Source of the DNA: a virus
Lineage: Duplodnaviria; Heunggongvirae; Uroviricota; Caudoviricetes
DNA length: 6,043 nucleotides
Virus record (IMG/VR): IMGVR_UViG_2737471819_000031
Coordinates: 1-6,043 of that record
Strand: one strand, 5' to 3'
The position numbers and the translations under genes are program-made. How positions within the stretch are numbered: position 1 is the stretch's first letter; each line of letters opens with the position of its first letter. This document shows positions 1 through 6,043 of this stretch, in pieces. The notes under the pieces are model-generated. The model saw nothing but the letters and a program-made list of their open reading frames with translations. It did not search any database and was not told the DNA's origin.

Positions 1-201
1 ATGACTACGACTATTGATAAAAATCAATGGTGTGGACAATTCAAGCGATGCAATGGATGCAAGCTGCAATCGGAATGCATGGTTAAGCCTGAAGAAATGT
101 TTCCTGTAATGGAAGATGGGAAATATGTCGATAAATGGGCAATACGAACGACGGCAATGATTGCCAGAGAACTTGGTAAACAGAACTACAAGGCTGCCTG
201 A
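1..201 (+). CDS. ral: Ral-like restriction-alleviation protein (66 aa)
   Basis: Complete 201-nt ORF starting at window position 1. The protein (MTTTIDKNQWCGQFKRCNGCKLQSEC...) matches my recollection of phage lambda Ral in sequence and length, has four Cys in the N-terminal third, and lies upstream of a cIII-like gene as in lambda. Identity is from memory and not verified. Confidence 0.55.
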   Translation: MTTTIDKNQWCGQFKRCNGCKLQSECMVKPEEMFPVMEDGKYVDKWAIRTTAMIARELGKQNYKAA

Positions 202-218
202 TGGTGGCCTTTATTTTT
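190..218 (+). terminator. Intrinsic terminator with the ral stop codon in the hairpin loop
   Basis: RNA stem AAGGCUGCC / GGUGGCCUU (9 bp including two G-U pairs), loop UGAU containing the TGA stop at 199..201, followed by UAUUUUUG. Confidence 0.5.
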
Positions 219-259
219 GTCCGTAAATAATTTCATGCTTATTACAATCAAGGTGATAT

Positions 260-709
260 ATGGAAGAACAAGCAAACAAGATTCTCGTAGAACTACTGCA
301 AAAAGCCAGCAATGGAATAGATGCTGCTGTTTCATTTAGCCAAGCACAGATTCCTGATGTTGTTCATCAGTTGCTGCTATGGAATATGGTTGACAGTCTG
401 ATTAAAACATTAATAGCCATTCTAACAATCCCACTGGTTTTCTGGTTTATGAAGAAGCAGTGCCAAAGAGTTGAGACAGGTAAAATCGGTGATGAAGGAT
501 ACTCATGGGAGAGGGGAAATCCCAAATACAGGCCGACAATGGTTTGGGATAGCAAAGGAGATGTTAACCTTCTTATCATGCCATTGGTTGGAGTTTTGAC
601 TCTGTGGGGGATTTTTATTATTGGTGTAGTAACCAATATGACTTGGTTAAAAATTTGGCTGGCCCCAAAACTTTACCTTATCGAATATGCAGCATCATTG
701 GTTAAGTAA
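260..709 (+). CDS. Small two-TM inner-membrane protein of unknown function (149 aa)
   Basis: ORF with SD-like AAGGTG 4-5 nt upstream of the ATG. Two strongly hydrophobic segments (LIKTLIAILTIPLVFWFM and LLIMPLVGVLTLWGIFIIGVVT) flank a charged ~40-aa loop. Terminators lie on both sides. Confidence 0.6.
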   Translation: MEEQANKILVELLQKASNGIDAAVSFSQAQIPDVVHQLLLWNMVDSLIKTLIAILTIPLVFWFMKKQCQRVETGKIGDEGYSWERGNPKYRPTMVWDSKGDVNLLIMPLVGVLTLWGIFIIGVVTNMTWLKIWLAPKLYLIEYAASLVK

Positions 710-713
710 TTTC

Positions 714-740
714 AGGCCGCATAGTCGGCCTTTATTTTTG
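714..740 (+). terminator. Intrinsic terminator
   Basis: Perfect 6-bp stem AGGCCG / CGGCCT with 6-nt loop, followed by TTATTTTTGG, 5 nt after the stop of ORF 260..709. Confidence 0.65.
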
Positions 741-768
741 GCATAAACAACAGAATAAATACTGCACT

Positions 769-796
769 GTGTATTCATTCCAACGAGTGAATACAC
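769..796 (+). repeat. Perfect 9-bp inverted repeat (GTGTATTCA-N10-TGAATACAC)
   Basis: Arms are exact reverse complements with a 10-nt spacer, in the non-coding stretch between the membrane-protein terminator and the cIII-like gene. Could be a protein-binding site or RNA hairpin; function unknown. Confidence 0.45.
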
Positions 797-858
797 GGAG
801 CAATGTCGCTCGTAACTAAACAGGAGCCGACTTGTTCTGATTATTGGAAATCTTCTTT

Positions 859-884
859 GCCCTCCAGTGTGAGGGCCTTTTTAT
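859..884 (+). terminator. Intrinsic terminator
   Basis: 6-bp stem GCCCTC / GAGGGC with 6-nt loop followed by CTTTTTATAT; only the + strand gives a U-tract. Confidence 0.5.
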
Positions 885-948
885 ATGCATACCAATAATG
901 CTTCACCAGAGGCATTTTCGTTATGCAATCAAACAGAAGGAGCATCCT

Positions 949-1119
949 ATGCAACAGTTCGCTATTGCAGGGGCGGCATCGGTTCGCCCTTTCAACCCGA
1001 TTTTATCGGTACAGCATTCACGAAAAAACATTTTAACCGGAGCAGACTTTAAACAACCAAGAATGAAAAGTTTGCTCGAAAAGCTTTGGGATATTTTGAA
1101 ACAACAAGGCCGTCCATGA
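949..1119 (+). CDS. cIII: CIII-like protein (56 aa; FtsH-inhibitor family in lambda)
   Basis: Strong SD AAGGAG 6 nt upstream of ATG 949. N-terminus MQQFAIAG resembles lambda CIII MQYAIAG as I recall it; C-terminal SLLEKLWDILKQQG resembles the CIII amphipathic region; size and position fit. The longer six-frame ORF from 844 lacks an SD and spans the terminator at 859..884. Confidence 0.5.
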   Translation: MQQFAIAGAASVRPFNPILSVQHSRKNILTGADFKQPRMKSLLEKLWDILKQQGRP

Positions 1120-1286
1120 GTTTTACAGATAACTGGTCAGACGAAGAATTCATTCGTCAGATGAAAGAATTAATCGGTAGCGAAGGAGATATTCATGTCA
1201 CTTGCAACCACAGTGAAGGAGAGCAAGTTACAGAGACGCATGTACACGCAGCAGGCGTTAATGTATCGCCAGAAGGGAGATCGTGA
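1116..1286 (+). CDS. Hypothetical small acidic protein (56 aa) at the kil position
   Basis: ATG 1116 overlaps the cIII-like stop as ATGA (translational coupling) with a weak AAGG SD 6 nt upstream. Sequence not recognised; 'kil position' is by synteny only. Confidence 0.35.
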   Translation: MSFTDNWSDEEFIRQMKELIGSEGDIHVTCNHSEGEQVTETHVHAAGVNVSPEGRS

Positions 1287-1365
1287 AGGTGTTCGCGTAT
1301 TTTTAAATGCGGCAAAGACTGAAGTATTAAATCAGCGTTATTTACTTGGGTCATGTCCATTCTGA
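1240..1365 (+). CDS. Hypothetical small protein (41 aa, or 34 aa from ATG 1261) just upstream of erf
   Basis: ORF below the six-frame track threshold (MYTQQALMYRQKGDREGVRVFLNAAKTEVLNQRYLLGSCPF). It fills the otherwise non-coding 1287..1375 gap and ends 10 nt before the erf start. It overlaps ORF 1116..1286 in another frame and the SD is weak, so one of the two may be spurious. Confidence 0.3.
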   Translation: MYTQQALMYRQKGDREGVRVFLNAAKTEVLNQRYLLGSCPF

Positions 1366-1375
1366 GAACAATCAT

Positions 1376-1981
1376 ATGAGCAAAGAATTTTACGCAAGAC
1401 TGGCAGCTATTCAGGAGAATCTGAACGCGCCAAAGAACCAATACAACTCATTCGGCAAATATAAATACAGAAGCTGCGAAGACATTCTTGAGGGTGTTAA
1501 GCCGTTACTGAATGGCCTGTTTTTATCAATCAGCGATGAAGTTGTGTTGATTGGTGATCGGTATTACGTGAAAGCCACGGCAACTATTACCGATGGCGAA
1601 AACAGTCATACGGCAACCGCACTAGCACGAGAGGAAGAAAGCAAGAAAGGAATGGATTCTGCACAAGTTACGGGAGCTACAAGCTCTTATGCACGTAAGT
1701 ATTGCCTCAATGGTTTGTTCGGCATTGATGATGCGAAAGATGCAGATACAGACGAGCATAAACATCAGCAGAACGCAGCAGCAAAGCAATCAAAACCATC
1801 ACCTACACCTGAACAGGTTCTAAAAGCATTCACTGACGCAGCAATGCAGAAAAACACCGTAGAAGAGCTTAAACAGGCGTTCGCCAAAGCGTGGAAGATG
1901 CTCGAAGGCACACCGGAGCAGCACAAAGCGCAGGACGTTTACAACATCAGACGAGACGAATTAGAAGGAGCGGCTGCTTAA
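1376..1981 (+). CDS. erf: Erf-family single-strand annealing protein (201 aa)
   Basis: Protein from ATG 1376 begins MSKEFYARLAAIQENLNAPKNQYNSFGKYKYRSCEDILEGVKPLL, which matches the P22 Erf N-terminal domain as I recall it; length is close to P22 Erf (~204 aa). The six-frame ORF starts 30 nt earlier at 1346, but neither start has a strong SD; 1376 is chosen on the homology. Confidence 0.75.
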   Translation: MSKEFYARLAAIQENLNAPKNQYNSFGKYKYRSCEDILEGVKPLLNGLFLSISDEVVLIGDRYYVKATATITDGENSHTATALAREEESKKGMDSAQVTGATSSYARKYCLNGLFGIDDAKDADTDEHKHQQNAAAKQSKPSPTPEQVLKAFTDAAMQKNTVEELKQAFAKAWKMLEGTPEQHKAQDVYNIRRDELEGAAA

Positions 1982-2364
1982 TGGCACATTCGATTACTGT
2001 AAGACTAAACAAGCCCGCAAGAGAGTTTCAGGGCGGGGAAAATATCGGATTCAACATCCGTGCTGGCGTTCAGTATTACGATCGCCAGACAAAAAAGAAA
2101 GAATGGACAAACTACAGCGCCGTTGTATTTGCCAAGCCGGGAGCGCAAGCGGATTACTACCGTAGTGTTCTTGTTGAAGGTGGCATTGTAGAAATTACCG
2201 GAGAAAACATCAGGGTTGATGTTTATCAGGGGCAAAATGGTCAATCAATCACTCTTGAATTACTGAATGCAAAGATTGGATTTGCAACTTCAGGAAACAG
2301 CCAACAGCAGCAAAGTAGCAATCATCAAAATCATCCTGAATATGACGATTCCATCCCATTCTGA
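1981..2364 (+). CDS. ssb: Phage single-stranded DNA-binding protein, SSB-like (127 aa)
   Basis: ATG 1981 overlaps the erf stop (TAATG) with AGGAG upstream. C-terminus ...EYDDSIPF is the acidic SSB tail (E. coli SSB ends DDDIPF). The core EWTNYSAVVFAKPGAQADYYRSVLVEGGIVEITGE parallels the E. coli SSB OB-fold segment [31 protein letters not shown]. A Gln-rich linker precedes the tail. Confidence 0.7.
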   Translation: MAHSITVRLNKPAREFQGGENIGFNIRAGVQYYDRQTKKKEWTNYSAVVFAKPGAQADYYRSVLVEGGIVEITGENIRVDVYQGQNGQSITLELLNAKIGFATSGNSQQQQSSNHQNHPEYDDSIPF

Positions 2365-2387
2365 TTTAGAAAAATAAGGATTTAATT

Positions 2388-2684
2388 ATGCCAGCGCCTT
2401 TGTATGGTGCGGATGACGCGCGCCGCTGTTCCGGCAATTCCGTATCGGAGGTGCTGGATAAATTCAGAAAAAACTACGACCTGATAATGTCGCTACCGCA
2501 GGAAACGAAAGAGGAAAAGGAGTTTCGCCACTGTATATGGCTTGCAGAGAAAGAAGAACGCGAGCGAATTTGCCAGACATCAATCCGACCATTCCGCAAA
2601 GCCACATATACCCACTTCCCTGAATATATCGACCCGCGCCTGCGTAATTACCGCTCACGCTATGGCGCTATCAGTAATGACTGA
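2388..2684 (+). CDS. Hypothetical protein (98 aa)
   Basis: SD AAGGA 7 nt upstream of ATG 2388. Basic/acidic soluble protein, not recognised. Confidence 0.55.
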
Positions 2685-2694
2685 GGAATTTACC

Positions 2695-2859
2695 ATGAGA
2701 GGACTTGCATACAATCCCGGCATTCTTCCGGCAGAAATGATTATTCGCCAACGCGTAAAGCCAATGCCATCGAGAGAGGAATTGCTTAAGAGAAACTCGT
2801 TTCCATCAGTGAATCAAAACAAATATCTGAATGCGATGTGGCGGAGTGGGAAGAAATGA
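2695..2859 (+). CDS. Hypothetical small basic protein (54 aa)
   Basis: SD GAGGAA 5 nt upstream of ATG 2695. The longer six-frame ORF from 2542 would overlap the preceding gene by 143 nt and lacks an SD, so the internal start is preferred. Stop overlaps the next start (ATGA). Confidence 0.45.
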
Positions 2860-3371
2860 AACAAATGACACTAATTGAGATGGATGGATTTCTGAAAGGT
2901 AAATGCATCCCATGTGATTTAAAGGTTAACGAAACAAATGCTGAATATCTGGTGCGTAAATTTGCTGAAGCGGAGGCCAAGATTTTGGCTCTGTCCGAAG
3001 ACCAACAGAAAGCGATTGAGTCAATTAAGCAGGCTGATGCAGCTGTTAAGTTGGCACACGAGAAGTTTTCGGCGCTGGCGGCGGAGAATGCGGGGCTGAA
3101 GTCTGGCGCTATGGACGAAATCAAGGTTATCAACCGTGGAGGTCAGGCATATTGCGTAAAAGATGGAGTGCAAGTTAATCCCATGTATGCAAGAGGGTGG
3201 AATGACTATCGCGCAAAGTCTCTGCAATCAGACACCCCAGCCACCGATGCTTTCCTGGCTGATGTACGGGCACAGGGGGTAGAGATGTTTGCTGACCATC
3301 TGTTGTGCCCAGACCTTGATGACACTATCCGTGACTTTGCTGCCCAGCTTCGCAAAGGAGTGCGGTCATGA
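2856..3371 (+). CDS. Hypothetical protein with central coiled-coil region (171 aa)
   Basis: ATG 2856 overlaps the upstream stop (ATGA); GGAG 9 nt upstream. Ala/Glu/Lys-rich predicted helical segment ([47 protein letters not shown]). Six-frame start at 2838 is also possible. Confidence 0.5.
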
Positions 3372-4045
3372 GCAACATCGACAAACGCGCATTACGTCAT
3401 AGCGCAGAAAGCATAATCGGCATTCTGGAAAACATTGCCGGGTTCGAACCATCTGATATCGACGGCGACTCTGTAGAGCTCCGCTTTGAAACTGAGGACG
3501 GTTTCGATACTGGTTGTGACGTTAGCATTGTTGACCAGTGCCAGAAAACCGCTGATGTAGTTCGGGCGATGCTGGATGAGCTGGAAAGAAACCAGCAGTA
3601 CATCAAATCCCGCGACCAGGAGAACGAGGATATTGCGCTAACGGTAGGGAAGCTGCGTGTTGAGCTGGAAGCCGCAGAGAACAACCTTATTGATAGTGAG
3701 TGCCATGTTGCTGAACTGGAAGAAGCGCTACGCGATAAGCAGGCGTTACTTGAAGCATCAGAGAAGCGCATAGCAGAACTGGAAGCTCGGGAAATAAAAC
3801 CAGCCAAAGGTGAAGTTCTTGTCGTTGTTTCTGGTTTTACTGGTTGCGGAAAAAGCGCCATTGCCGGGGAAATAGAAATCGCGATGAAGGCTATTGGTGT
3901 ACCGGTTCAGTGGACTAATGGCGATGCGGAAAAGCGCATGACAGGAGCTGACTGGCTGACAGCGATTGAGATGTACAAACCAACAGTGCGCATCGTGGAA
4001 GTTAATGTGCCACGCGCCGCTGGCATTCGCATCAAAGGAGAGTGA
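3368..4045 (+). CDS. Ead/Ea22-like coiled-coil protein (225 aa)
   Basis: ATGA overlap with the upstream stop; SD AAGGAG 7 nt upstream. N-terminal [10 protein letters not shown]..., a long heptad-like acidic coiled coil ending ...EKRIAELEAREIK and C-terminus ...AAGIRIKGE resemble Ea22-like proteins of enterobacterial lambdoid prophages as I recall them. Synteny fits (between recombination genes and xis). Confidence 0.5.
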   Translation: MSNIDKRALRHSAESIIGILENIAGFEPSDIDGDSVELRFETEDGFDTGCDVSIVDQCQKTADVVRAMLDELERNQQYIKSRDQENEDIALTVGKLRVELEAAENNLIDSECHVAELEEALRDKQALLEASEKRIAELEAREIKPAKGEVLVVVSGFTGCGKSAIAGEIEIAMKAIGVPVQWTNGDAEKRMTGADWLTAIEMYKPTVRIVEVNVPRAAGIRIKGE

Positions 4046-4046
4046 T

Positions 4047-4547
4047 ATGACCACTATTACCAAAGAGCGACTGCTGACAATCAGGCAGTGGCGCGAAACA
4101 TACGGACCTGGTAGCAACGTTGTACTGCCAGCAGAAGAAGCGGAAGAACTGGCACGGATTGCTCTGGCATCGCTGGAAGCAGAACCGGTGGCGTGGAAGG
4201 TAACTTTCACGCAAATTGACCGTGAATATAACACGTTCACTGGTATGTATTCTGACAAAGCAGAAGTCGAACGGTGGGTGCGGCTGCATAAAGCATGTAA
4301 TTTTCTGGCAGATATAACACCGCTTTATACCGCCAAGCCAGTGCCGGTAACTCCGGATGGTTGGATAAGCTGTAGTGAGCGAATGCCGGATAAGTTAATT
4401 CCGGTAATGGTCATGTATGAAGACGGTGAGATGTGGTCTGCAATGTGGAATGGCAATCGCTGGGATGATGGCACCGAATATCCGGATCCGCACTCAGTTA
4501 CGCACTGGTGTGAAATGCCAGCAGCACCGCAGCAGGAGGTGAAGTGA
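4047..4547 (+). CDS. DUF551-like phage protein (166 aa)
   Basis: SD AAGGAG 6 nt upstream of ATG 4047, which lies 1 nt after the upstream stop. C-terminal region WISCSERMPDKLIPVMV...WDDGTEYPDPHSVTHWCEMPAAP matches the DUF551 signature (W-I-S-x-x-D-R-L-P ... V-T-H-W-M-P-L-P) common in the ead region of lambdoid prophages. Confidence 0.6.
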   Translation: MTTITKERLLTIRQWRETYGPGSNVVLPAEEAEELARIALASLEAEPVAWKVTFTQIDREYNTFTGMYSDKAEVERWVRLHKACNFLADITPLYTAKPVPVTPDGWISCSERMPDKLIPVMVMYEDGEMWSAMWNGNRWDDGTEYPDPHSVTHWCEMPAAPQQEVK

Positions 4548-4831
4548 TGGACTCCTTCGCGAAATATACGATTATTGACTGGATAGCATTCCTTCAGGTT
4601 TTGCTCATCTGGTTTTATATGGCTTACAGGAGTGGGCAGTGGATTGTCAGTGTAGCCTGTAGCAAGGGATGGCGTTGGTGGAACCGAAAGAATAAAAAAG
4701 CGCTGGCCTTGGATTCGTTTTACGAAGCATTCAATCTTAACAGCCTTCAGCCTGGTTCTGTCATTGTTGTCACCACTCAAAGCGGCATGACGATACAAAT
4801 TCACAAGCCAAAGGAGGAAGGTCGTGGCTAA
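4547..4831 (+). CDS. Hypothetical small protein with N-terminal hydrophobic helix (94 aa)
   Basis: ATG 4547 shares one base with the DUF551 stop (TGATG); SD AGGAGG 8 nt upstream (six-frame start is GTG 4544). N-terminal IIDWIAFLQVLLIWFYMAY is TM-like, followed by a Trp/Arg-rich stretch (KGWRWWNRKNKK). Confidence 0.5.
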   Translation: MDSFAKYTIIDWIAFLQVLLIWFYMAYRSGQWIVSVACSKGWRWWNRKNKKALALDSFYEAFNLNSLQPGSVIVVTTQSGMTIQIHKPKEEGRG

Positions 4832-5108
4832 CCTGCAACTTGCCGTAAAAGGTGAATACTTCGATGCCATGATTCGCAGAGAGAAAACGGAAGAGTATCG
4901 CCTGTGTAATGACTATTGGAATAAGCGCCTCATTAACCGTAAGTATGACCGCCTGATTATCACAAAGGGATATCCGAAGCGCGACGACTCCAGCCGCAGA
5001 ATTGATGTTCCGTATGACGGATATGAAATCAAGACAATCACACATCCCCACTTCGGCGATAAACCGGTAAAGGTATACGCGATAAAGGTGAATATCGGCA
5101 ATGAATAA
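4824..5108 (+). CDS. ASCH/PUA-like small protein (94 aa), GTG start
   Basis: GTG 4824 is preceded by a near-perfect SD AAGGAGG at 6-nt spacing and overlaps the upstream gene by 8 nt. N-terminal KGEYFDAMIRREKTEEYRL fits the ASCH pattern (compare E. coli YqfB FQDDILAGRKTITIRD as I recall it). Family call is tentative. Confidence 0.5.
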   Translation: MANLQLAVKGEYFDAMIRREKTEEYRLCNDYWNKRLINRKYDRLIITKGYPKRDDSSRRIDVPYDGYEIKTITHPHFGDKPVKVYAIKVNIGNE

Positions 5109-5112
5109 CAAT

Positions 5113-5137
5113 CCTCGCACTCGCGGGGATTTCTTTT
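5113..5137 (+). terminator. Intrinsic terminator ending the coupled gene run
   Basis: RNA stem CCUCGC / GCGGGG (6 bp, one G-U) with loop ACUC, followed by AUUUCUUUUAUC, 5 nt after the stop at 5108. Confidence 0.45.
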
Positions 5138-5180
5138 ATCTGAACTCGCTACGGCGGGTTTTGCTTTATGGAGATGATAA

Positions 5181-5348
5181 ATGCACTTCCGAGTCACAGG
5201 TGAATGGAATGGAGAGCCATTCAACAGAGTTATCGAAGCGGAGAACATCAACGACTGCTACGACCACTGGATGATATGGGCGCAGATAGCACATGCAGAC
5301 GTAACCAATATTCGAATTGAAGAACTGAAAGAACACCAAGCCGCCTGA
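5181..5348 (+). CDS. Hypothetical small protein (55 aa), absent from the six-frame track
   Basis: ATG 5181 with GGAG 7 nt upstream; translation MHFRVTGEWNGEPFNRVIEAENINDCYDHWMIWAQIAHADVTNIRIEELKEHQAA. Its TGA stop sits in the loop of the terminator at 5341..5361. The antisense six-frame ORF 5166..5372 has no such signals. Confidence 0.5.
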   Translation: MHFRVTGEWNGEPFNRVIEAENINDCYDHWMIWAQIAHADVTNIRIEELKEHQAA

Positions 5349-5361
5349 TGGCGGTTTTTTT
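5341..5361 (+). terminator. Intrinsic terminator with a stop codon in the hairpin loop
   Basis: Stem CCGCC / GGCGG with loop TGAT (TGA stop at 5346..5348), followed by a 7-T tract. Confidence 0.65.
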
Positions 5362-5375
5362 ATTGGAGACAAGAA

Positions 5376-5720
5376 ATGTCAGATTTGGCTATGAAGGTTT
5401 TGGAATGGCAATCGACTGGCGATGTCGGCATCAGTAGCGCAACTCTTGCCTCAATCGCATGTGGACTGAAAAAGAATATCTATGGTCATCACTTCGGCGC
5501 TCCACATGACGCAGCAGATTTCCGACGATGCGTTGCACTTGTTGAGCAGATTCCAGAAATCAGAGATTCATTCGACAAGGTTGCAAAGCGCGTTCCGGCA
5601 TTCAAAGGAATCCTCAACGAATGGGATTCACTCGTTGCTCTGTTGAAGTCTGAAATGAAGACGTACGGGAACAAAGCACCAGAGACTTACAGAAGAATCA
5701 GCGAGCTACGCAAGGACTAA
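5376..5720 (+). CDS. Hypothetical protein (114 aa) at the ea8.5 position upstream of xis
   Basis: ATG 5376 with GGAG 7 nt upstream, directly after the terminator T-tract. Soluble, probably helical protein, not recognised. Followed by two tandem terminators. Confidence 0.55.
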   Translation: MSDLAMKVLEWQSTGDVGISSATLASIACGLKKNIYGHHFGAPHDAADFRRCVALVEQIPEIRDSFDKVAKRVPAFKGILNEWDSLVALLKSEMKTYGNKAPETYRRISELRKD

Positions 5721-5723
5721 CCC

Positions 5724-5752
5724 GCCTCACACTCGATGAGGCATTTTCATTT
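5724..5752 (+). terminator. Intrinsic terminator
   Basis: Perfect 6-bp stem GCCTCA / TGAGGC with 7-nt loop, followed by ATTTTCATTT, 3 nt after the stop at 5720. Confidence 0.5.
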
Positions 5753-5777
5753 ATCAAGATATCCAGACCTACCATCG

Positions 5778-5800
5778 CCGCATCAATGCGGTTTTTTATT
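5778..5800 (+). terminator. Intrinsic terminator (second of a tandem pair)
   Basis: Stem CCGCA / TGCGG with loop TCAA, followed by TTTTTTATT. Confidence 0.55.
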
Positions 5801-5842
5801 GCCTGATTTGCAGGTTCGATTCCCTATTCGGAGATAGCACTC

Positions 5843-6043
5843 ATGCAACACGAACTACAGCCTGATTCACTGGTTGATTTGAAATTCATCATGGCCGATA
5901 CTGGCTTCGGTAAAACCTTCATCTACGACCGGATTAAGTCCGGCGATCTGCCAAAAGCCAAAGTTATCCACGGACGAGCAAGATGGTTATATCGTGACCA
6001 TTGTGAATTCAAAAATAAGCTCTTAAGCCGCGCCAATGGGTAA
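5843..6043 (+). CDS. xis: AlpA-family DNA-binding protein, putative excisionase (66 aa)
   Basis: GGAG 9 nt upstream of ATG 5843; complete ORF ending in TAA at the last base of the window. LVDLKFIMADTGFGKTFIYDRIKSGDLPKAKVIHGRARWLYRDHCEF matches the AlpA/excisionase-type winged-helix family as I recall it. It is the last gene of the co-oriented operon, where lambdoid phages carry xis ahead of int. Confidence 0.6.
   Translation: MQHELQPDSLVDLKFIMADTGFGKTFIYDRIKSGDLPKAKVIHGRARWLYRDHCEFKNKLLSRANG

Follow-up and report, generated by a model that had tools for sequence, protein, structure and literature searches.

ASCH proteins of the GKER type (TthASCH, 2DP9; ZmASCH, 5GUQ; human EOLA1; the ASCH domain of TRIP4) are small PUA-like beta-barrels that share an N-terminal strand-helix carrying the octapeptide G-x-K-x-x-E-x-R with its conserved Lys and Glu. 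A 2026 preprint reported removal of N4-acetylcytidine (ac4C) from tRNA by every one of the 19 ASCH proteins tested, and an essential role of the octapeptide Lys and Glu in those GKER-type proteins that were mutated (bioRxiv 10.64898/2026.02.27.708502). Further relatives are Escherichia coli YqfB, an N4-acetylcytidine amidohydrolase (9KYF), and DUF3850 (PF12961; E. faecalis NP_814290, 3IUW), a phage-enriched ASCH-like domain. At the level of the operon, lambda and Stx phages carry the exo-xis genes, and P22 and HK620 the 'ea' genes (ea22, ea8.5, orf60a-73, eaA-eaI, hka), which are small, mosaic, non-essential and expressed early from pL, and which lie between the recombination genes and xis/int. 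Here we analyze a stretch of 6,043 nucleotides (nt) from a virus of the Caudoviricetes (IMG/VR record IMGVR_UViG_2737471819_000031, positions 1 to 6,043; this whole stretch is called the window), in which a gene for a DUF4752 protein overlaps a gene for an ASCH-like protein. The closest relatives of the ASCH-like gene are the GKER-type ASCH proteins, YqfB and DUF3850, and the DUF4752 gene has only DUF4752 itself; the closest system-level analogue of the pair is the set of non-essential exo-xis/ea accessory genes.

Both genes are already known: thousands of enterobacterial prophages, as well as phages ST104, CUS-3 and HF4s, have annotated proteins that share 94-99% identity with their products. 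Compared with the GKER-type ASCH proteins, whose barrel and octapeptide region it resembles, the window protein has only 94 amino acids (aa), is phage-borne, has no match to PF04266 and carries Arg in place of the motif Gly. YqfB has Thr where the phage family has Glu (GKTR versus GKER) and is encoded by a chromosomal housekeeping gene, whereas the ASCH-like gene is a prophage cassette; an hhalign comparison of the ASCH-like family profile with the YqfB sequence aligned only 16 columns of the motif region with a probability of 0.2. The window protein does not match the DUF3850 model and is not fused to a ParB-CTPase domain. The pair occupies the same position as the exo-xis/ea genes, with ea22 and DUF551 as immediate neighbors, but the exo-xis genes studied experimentally do not include DUF4752 or the ASCH-like gene, and the same cassettes are found in the nin region in some prophages. 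The pair is likely to consist of two separate cassettes, DUF4752 and the ASCH-like gene, each an accessory ('moron-like') component of the early-left operon in a P22-like/lambdoid prophage. The features of the pair are as follows.

4547-4831, plus strand: DUF4752 gene, 94 aa (start ATG at 4547, stop TAA at 4829-4831; Pfam PF15944, phrog_667)
4824-5108, plus strand: ASCH-like gene, 94 aa (start GTG at 4824, stop TAA at 5106-5108; phrog_625; named 'ASCH domain-containing protein' or 'RNA-binding protein' in RefSeq)
4824-4831, plus strand: 8-nt overlap joint GTGGCTAA, read from the sequence, comprising the ASCH-like start and the DUF4752 stop
4811-4817, plus strand: Shine-Dalgarno sequence AAGGAGG of the ASCH-like gene, within the last DUF4752 codons and 6 nt before the GTG
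4535-4549, plus strand: upstream joint, with Shine-Dalgarno sequence GGAGG at 4535-4539 and the DUF551 stop TGA (4545-4547) overlapping the DUF4752 ATG (4547-4549) by 1 nt (TGATG)
4571-4627, plus strand: hydrophobic helix IIDWIAFLQVLLIWFYMAY of DUF4752, predicted transmembrane segment, residues 9-27
4664-4699, plus strand: juxtamembrane Trp/Arg-rich motif KGWRWWNRKNKK of DUF4752, residues 40-51
4878-4901, plus strand: ASCH octapeptide position, REKTEEYR in the window allele (family consensus GEKTEEYR, that is GxKxxExR)
5110-5131 and 5142-5161, plus strand: two terminator-like hairpins directly 3' of the ASCH-like stop (consensus scan only)

The coordinates, the 8-nt overlap, the GTG start and the AAGGAGG sequence had all been proposed in an earlier sequence-only reading of this DNA, and they agree exactly with the open reading frame (ORF) list and the raw sequence. 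In E. coli prophages, RefSeq/PGAP annotates two identical genes, 285 nt each and overlapping by the same 8 nt, and in phage ST104 the same two genes and overlap are annotated as orf7/orf6. The GTG start of the ASCH-like gene is corroborated because homologous loci carry ATG at that codon, followed by the same MANLQ N-terminus. By comparing 57 unique DUF4752 alleles and 105 unique alleles of the ASCH-like gene with the window copy, we obtained ratios of nonsynonymous to synonymous polymorphism (pN/pS) of 0.06 and 0.20, respectively; both frames are real genes under purifying selection and not chance ORFs. In the window the two genes are co-transcribed and physically coupled. Two minus-strand ORFs (4325-4870 and 4770-5120) were rejected as genes, given purifying selection and family-model matches in the plus-strand frames and RefSeq annotation there on the plus strand only.

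To see whether the two genes form a unit, we used their occurrence in 5,426 complete E. coli genomes, where the pair was scored by at least 80% coverage of a joint-spanning query, and in the 80 IMG/VR loci closest to the ASCH-like protein and the 80 closest to DUF4752. Within the E. coli set, 546 genomes contained DUF4752, 1,526 contained the ASCH-like gene and 267 had the joint. DUF4752 lay immediately upstream of ASCH in 9 of the 80 ASCH loci and elsewhere in the locus in 2, and was absent from the remaining 69; conversely, 54 of the 80 DUF4752 loci had ASCH downstream and 26 had no ASCH. None of 15 ASCH-like loci in GTDB species-representative genomes (including Brenneria, Citrobacter, Kluyvera, Polaromonas and Rhizobium) had DUF4752, and their neighbors, where scanned, were prophage early genes (DnaB, NinB, YqaJ-like recombinase, integrase). 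The presence of a partner does not track DUF4752 relatedness, as ASCH is missing from the Citrobacter type, at 68% identity, and present in the more distant Kosakonia type, at 52%. The two genes thus occur independently in both directions, and an obligate two-gene module, in which each gene would rarely be found without the other, is rejected on co-occurrence.

Examination of the joints themselves showed that they are shared far beyond this pair. The same 8-nt overlap is present in 59 of the 80 ASCH loci, with DUF4752 as the upstream gene in only 9, and 18 further loci have a TAATG joint. The gene upstream of this -8 joint usually encodes a DUF551 variant or another unrelated protein, and these unrelated proteins share only their last five or six residues, ...QEVNRG followed by the stop, encoded by CAGGAGGTTAACCGTGGCTAA. 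GGAGG stands at the equivalent Shine-Dalgarno position in most of the 80 ASCH loci, regardless of the upstream gene. From the other side, all lineages examined keep RTG[GC]CTAA at the 3' end of DUF4752, and the gene that follows is of four kinds. It leads into ASCH in E. coli and Kosakonia; in Edwardsiella (L181-L183, 2778-3581) the identical 8-nt overlap couples DUF4752 to a 267-aa ParB-like protein (phrog_1033); in the Citrobacter type (L185-L187, L218-L223; 2778-3116) the identical overlap is followed by a 112-aa Arg- and Cys-rich protein (phrog_536, 'transcriptional regulator'); and in the Enterobacter type (L188-L212, ~nt 2775-2855) the -8 joint ATGCCTAA opens an unannotated hydrophobic micro-ORF of 24-26 aa, MPNPFDAVMFVLLVIGALQGIGWLPW. 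This micro-ORF is intact in 11 of 25 loci, has 60 aa in one (L197) and is replaced by shorter frames of 7-22 aa, with an unchanged start, in the other 13; it has no PHROG match, and could be a small membrane peptide or a decaying remnant. A 92-aa form of DUF4752 ends in ...KPKEEK and the stop, with no joint and no ASCH, and some 94-aa copies retain the joint yet have lost ASCH. At the DUF4752 start, the joint CAGGAGGTGAAGTGATGGAC recurs in nearly all of the 80 DUF4752 loci, and the 5' joint GGAGGTGAAGTGATGG, within the DUF551 end, is as conserved as the 3' joint.

The 8-nt overlap is therefore a generic cassette-chaining joint that is not specific to the DUF4752-ASCH pair, and because the same ~20-nt joints recur between unrelated genes, they point to generic chaining and cassette exchange instead of a dedicated partnership. 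The sequence-only reading had taken the overlapping pair for a plausible, though speculative, two-component sensor/effector or modification-sensing module, which is not supported, given independent occurrence and the generic joint. Of the two grounds on which that reading would have been given up, lack of an ASCH/PUA-like fold did not apply, and independent occurrence of the genes in other genomes did. In Enterobacter, Kosakonia and Citrobacter prophages (L178-L180, L184-L187), DUF4752 is part of the nin region, between the replication genes and NinB/NinE/NinG; this is where the entire DUF4752-ASCH pair of Kosakonia is placed, while the window copies are in the ea region beside xis, so cassettes move between these two accessory regions. 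Cassettes probably also exchange preferentially at the overlap joint, which is reminiscent of the older 'linker sequence' concept in modular phage evolution. A bolder idea, to which we give little credence, is that the conserved Shine-Dalgarno sequence and RTGSCTAA joint act together as a linker of short homology and so drive cassette exchange between the ea and nin regions.

The upstream protein of the pair belongs to Pfam DUF4752 (PF15944), which it matches with E=2.7e-36 and 123.9 bits against a cut-off of 27, residues 8-91 aligning to positions 2-84 of the 84-position profile; near-identical RefSeq proteins are named 'DUF4752 family protein'. The family is confined to Enterobacterales prophages and comprises 47 clusters at 90% identity with a single-sequence query and 118 with a profile query. 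Almost all full-length members listed, from Escherichia, Enterobacter, Citrobacter, Edwardsiella and Cronobacter, have 94 aa. The N-terminus had been read as transmembrane-like, and residues 9-27 are indeed hydrophobic, with a best 19-residue Kyte-Doolittle window of 1.78; the usual cut-off for a membrane helix is ~1.6. Membrane anchoring is accordingly plausible as a prediction, and the Trp/Arg-rich motif noted alongside it is a real family feature, as G41 W42 R43 W44 W45 N46 R47 are invariant among 10 homologs down to 48% identity. Other invariant positions are D11, W12, I21, W22, F23 and M25, and in the C-terminal part P69-G70, T77 and S79-G80. The positive cluster after the helix suggests, by the positive-inside rule, an N-out/C-in topology. 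The AlphaFold2 (AF2) model has a long helix (9-45), a second helix (50-61) and a beta-hairpin (72-86), and a fold search with it yielded generic long-helix matches only.

The downstream protein belongs to phrog_625, a larger and more widely distributed family for which 646 clusters were counted at 90% identity and 668 at 50%; its members occur in the early regions of prophages that range from Enterobacterales to Alpha- and Betaproteobacteria. Its AF2 model is a small beta-barrel with two helices (predicted local distance difference test score, pLDDT, 78.3), which is consistent with a PUA-like/ASCH fold, as the sequence-only reading had anticipated. The ASCH-like N-terminal pattern that it described was also borne out at the level of the family, in which the octapeptide consensus is G19-E-K21-T-E-E24-Y-R26 (GEKTEEYR in 230 of 270 homologs and 156 of 181 locus copies). 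Among homologs at 39-59% identity, K21 never varies, and conservation is at least 90% at both E24 and R26. At codon 19 (4878-4880) the window allele has Arg instead of the near-invariant Gly, with the Lys, Glu and Arg kept; position 19 is G in 171 and R in 10 of the 181 locus copies, and R is a minority allele in 8 of the 270 homologs.

Curated sequence models do not recognize this protein. No Pfam match was obtained at E<0.1, including ASCH PF04266 and DUF3850 PF12961; 3 of 45 distant relatives weakly match each of these two models, with best E values of 0.003 and 0.0017. The NCBIfam scan gave only a sub-threshold match to 'FRAT-87' (E 0.077, 13.4 bits against a cut-off of 50), and PDB sequences, searched with the protein itself and with a profile, yielded nothing beyond chance-level matches, such as 27 residues of 3iuw at E 0.5. 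No informative domain fusions were seen among longer homologs, one of which has an Ea22 N-terminus and is probably a fused gene call. The literature on ASCH in prophages or on DUF3850 gives no function for the family. The ASCH-fold assignment is thus supported by the modeled fold and the motif, and not by curated sequence models.

Each cassette has a ribosome-binding site of its own, placed within the final codons of the gene before it, and the genes are chained by short overlaps. Both genes would be expressed early after infection or induction, dispensable, and gained or lost independently. DUF4752 would be a bitopic inner-membrane protein with an 8-residue periplasmic N-terminus, one transmembrane helix and an interfacial GWRWWNRK anchor at the cytoplasmic side, and its cytoplasmic domain of ~45 residues, a helix plus beta-hairpin, probably makes contact at the membrane with a protein of host or phage origin. 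The ASCH-like protein would be an ASCH beta-barrel of minimal size in which the GKER-type octapeptide has its Lys/Glu pair, and it most likely binds RNA or modified cytidine in a cleft formed by the octapeptide. It may deacylate ac4C in tRNA by analogy with other GKER-type ASCH proteins, and this is the most concrete candidate activity because of the preprint results on ASCH proteins (bioRxiv 10.64898/2026.02.27.708502). The R19 allele of the window may be impaired, and we regard a pure reader/binder role of the ASCH-like protein and deacylation as about equally likely.

Several observations weigh against this account of two separate cassettes and their proposed functions. About half of E. coli DUF4752 copies have ASCH downstream, and the pair recurs in the Kosakonia nin region at 52%/80% identity (DUF4752/ASCH); because the association is non-zero, a facultative DUF4752-ASCH interaction is possible. 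The AF2 model of DUF4752 has low confidence (pLDDT 66, with 80-84 over residues 11-30), the topology is predicted from hydropathy and charge only, and DUF4752 is not mentioned in the literature searched. In the window allele of the ASCH-like protein, the Arg that replaces the octapeptide Gly may reduce or eliminate any catalytic activity. The first of these points would fit a functional two-component unit, in which the membrane partner recruits or regulates a reader of nucleic acid or modified bases and the overlap enforces stoichiometric co-expression. The arrangement for translational coupling is present (the Shine-Dalgarno sequence inside the DUF4752 gene and the 8-nt overlap), the pair is present in 54 of the 80 IMG/VR DUF4752 loci and in ~267 of the 546 E. 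coli genomes with DUF4752, and Kosakonia has the pair too, diverged in sequence and in another region of the phage, beside NinE/NinG. Yet most ASCH-like genes are without DUF4752 (69 of 80 in IMG/VR, all 15 in species representatives, and 1,526 versus 267 in E. coli), DUF4752 also stands alone or with unrelated downstream genes, the joint is common to many unrelated neighbors, and the partner state does not follow relatedness between the Citrobacter and Kosakonia types, which together make such a unit improbable.

A different possibility, which we judge unlikely though less so than the two-component unit, is that DUF4752 acts as a lone small membrane-active effector (in superinfection exclusion, as a modulator of host membrane proteins, or toxin-/holin-like) with the ASCH-like gene as a mere neighbor. 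This would suit the single hydrophobic helix followed by a family-invariant cationic, Trp-rich interfacial motif, the strictly conserved length, the strong purifying selection, the occurrence of DUF4752 without ASCH, and early-operon neighbors in such phages that include the small host-directed proteins Kil, cIII and Ral. The comparison with holin and small-toxin families suggested by the sequence-only reading was negative, as neither protein matched a holin, toxin or defense family (Pfam, NCBIfam, PHROGs; PADLOC at E<0.01); in addition, the gene does not lie in a lysis cassette, an Rfam scan of the window found no RNA family, antisense RNA families included, and the fold search returned only the generic helices. 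DUF4752 as a holin or type I toxin in particular was rejected on its context in the early-left operon (DUF551 to xis) and on the lack of a family match. For the ASCH-like protein, a non-catalytic binder (RNA chaperone, regulator or modified-nucleotide reader) instead of an ac4C deacylase is a somewhat stronger contender, though still one we hold only tentatively. The octapeptide Gly is absent from the window allele, the protein at 94 aa is below the characterized ASCH enzymes in size (YqfB 103, TthASCH 121), and some records name it 'RNA-binding protein', but the invariance of K21 and near-invariance of E24/R26 is the pattern expected of a catalytic pair, and every one of the 19 ASCH proteins tested in the preprint was reported to remove tRNA ac4C (bioRxiv 10.64898/2026.02.27.708502).

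As a whole, the window represents the early-left (pL) operon of an enterobacterial prophage of the P22-like/lambdoid type, with an 'ea'/exo-xis accessory region that ends at xis/int. Its gene order is matched by the annotation of phage ST104 and of an E. coli prophage, where it adjoins xis/int. The window is mosaic, as 633 phage records match portions of it and 0 cover at least 80%; the best phage matches are HF4s, vB_EcoP-720R6, Stx phages, CUS-3 and HK022. The genes around the pair are listed below.

1-201: Ral (family scans, Pfam/PHROG)
260-709, plus strand: protein of 149 aa with two hydrophobic segments, predicted two-helix membrane protein (phrog_3054, unknown function)
844-1119, plus strand: ORF with a cIII-like C-terminal part (phrog_550, PHROG match)
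1086-1286, plus strand: ORF for a small phrog_2123 protein labeled 'recombinase' (PHROG match, residues 11-62)
1346-1981: Erf (family scan)
1981-2364: SSB-like protein (family scan)
2388-2684: Abc2 anti-RecBCD (family scan)
2692-2859: DUF2737 (family scan)
2838-3371: unknown protein (ORF)
3368-4045: Ead/Ea22 (family scan)
4047-4547: DUF551 (family scan)
5181-5348, plus strand: ORF of 55 aa, unknown function (phrog_676, PHROG match)
5376-5720, plus strand: ORF of 114 aa, unknown function (phrog_1229, PHROG match)
5843 to the window end: excisionase-like (xis) helix-turn-helix ORF (weak Pfam HTH_17 match)

Genes of the operon are chained by short overlaps or 1-nt gaps (window 3365-3372, 4030-4050, 4535-4549): the ORF at 2838-3371 and ea22 share ATGA, and the DUF551 ATG at 4047 sits 1 nt past the ea22 stop. 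From this chaining it follows that the ORF listing over-extends DUF551 to TTG 3966. The 260-709 protein has no Pfam family, and phrog_3054 is its sole match; it lies directly after ral, the position where lambdoid phages carry sieB-type exclusion genes. A kil-like gene was not recognized in the PHROG scan of the window, and the cIII-like frame and the phrog_2123 protein lie upstream of erf. The phrog_676 and phrog_1229 ORFs, between the ASCH-like gene and xis, are conserved, and each is present or absent independently of the other across related loci, and both are followed by terminator-like hairpins, the stem of the hairpin at 5338-5357 running into TTTTTATT. The two hairpins 3' of the ASCH-like gene would be read through under N antitermination.

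The mini-ASCH, with an intact catalytic-type Lys/Glu motif, is widespread on phages (1,526 of 5,426 complete E. coli genomes) and is a candidate of note given the recent report of tRNA ac4C erasure by ASCH proteins. A bolder possibility, to which we give little credence at present, is that it is an eraser or reader of RNA modification, optionally tethered to the membrane by DUF4752. If so, it would act, for example, on ac4C34 of host elongator tRNA-Met, its early deployment would serve to retune translation in the host or to weaken a defense that depends on RNA modification, and in those phages, a minority, that carry the pair, DUF4752 would hold it at the membrane or gate it there. The locus is a clean example of how short overlap joints containing a Shine-Dalgarno sequence let unrelated accessory genes swap in lambdoid early operons, and therefore gene overlap alone is no evidence of functional partnership.

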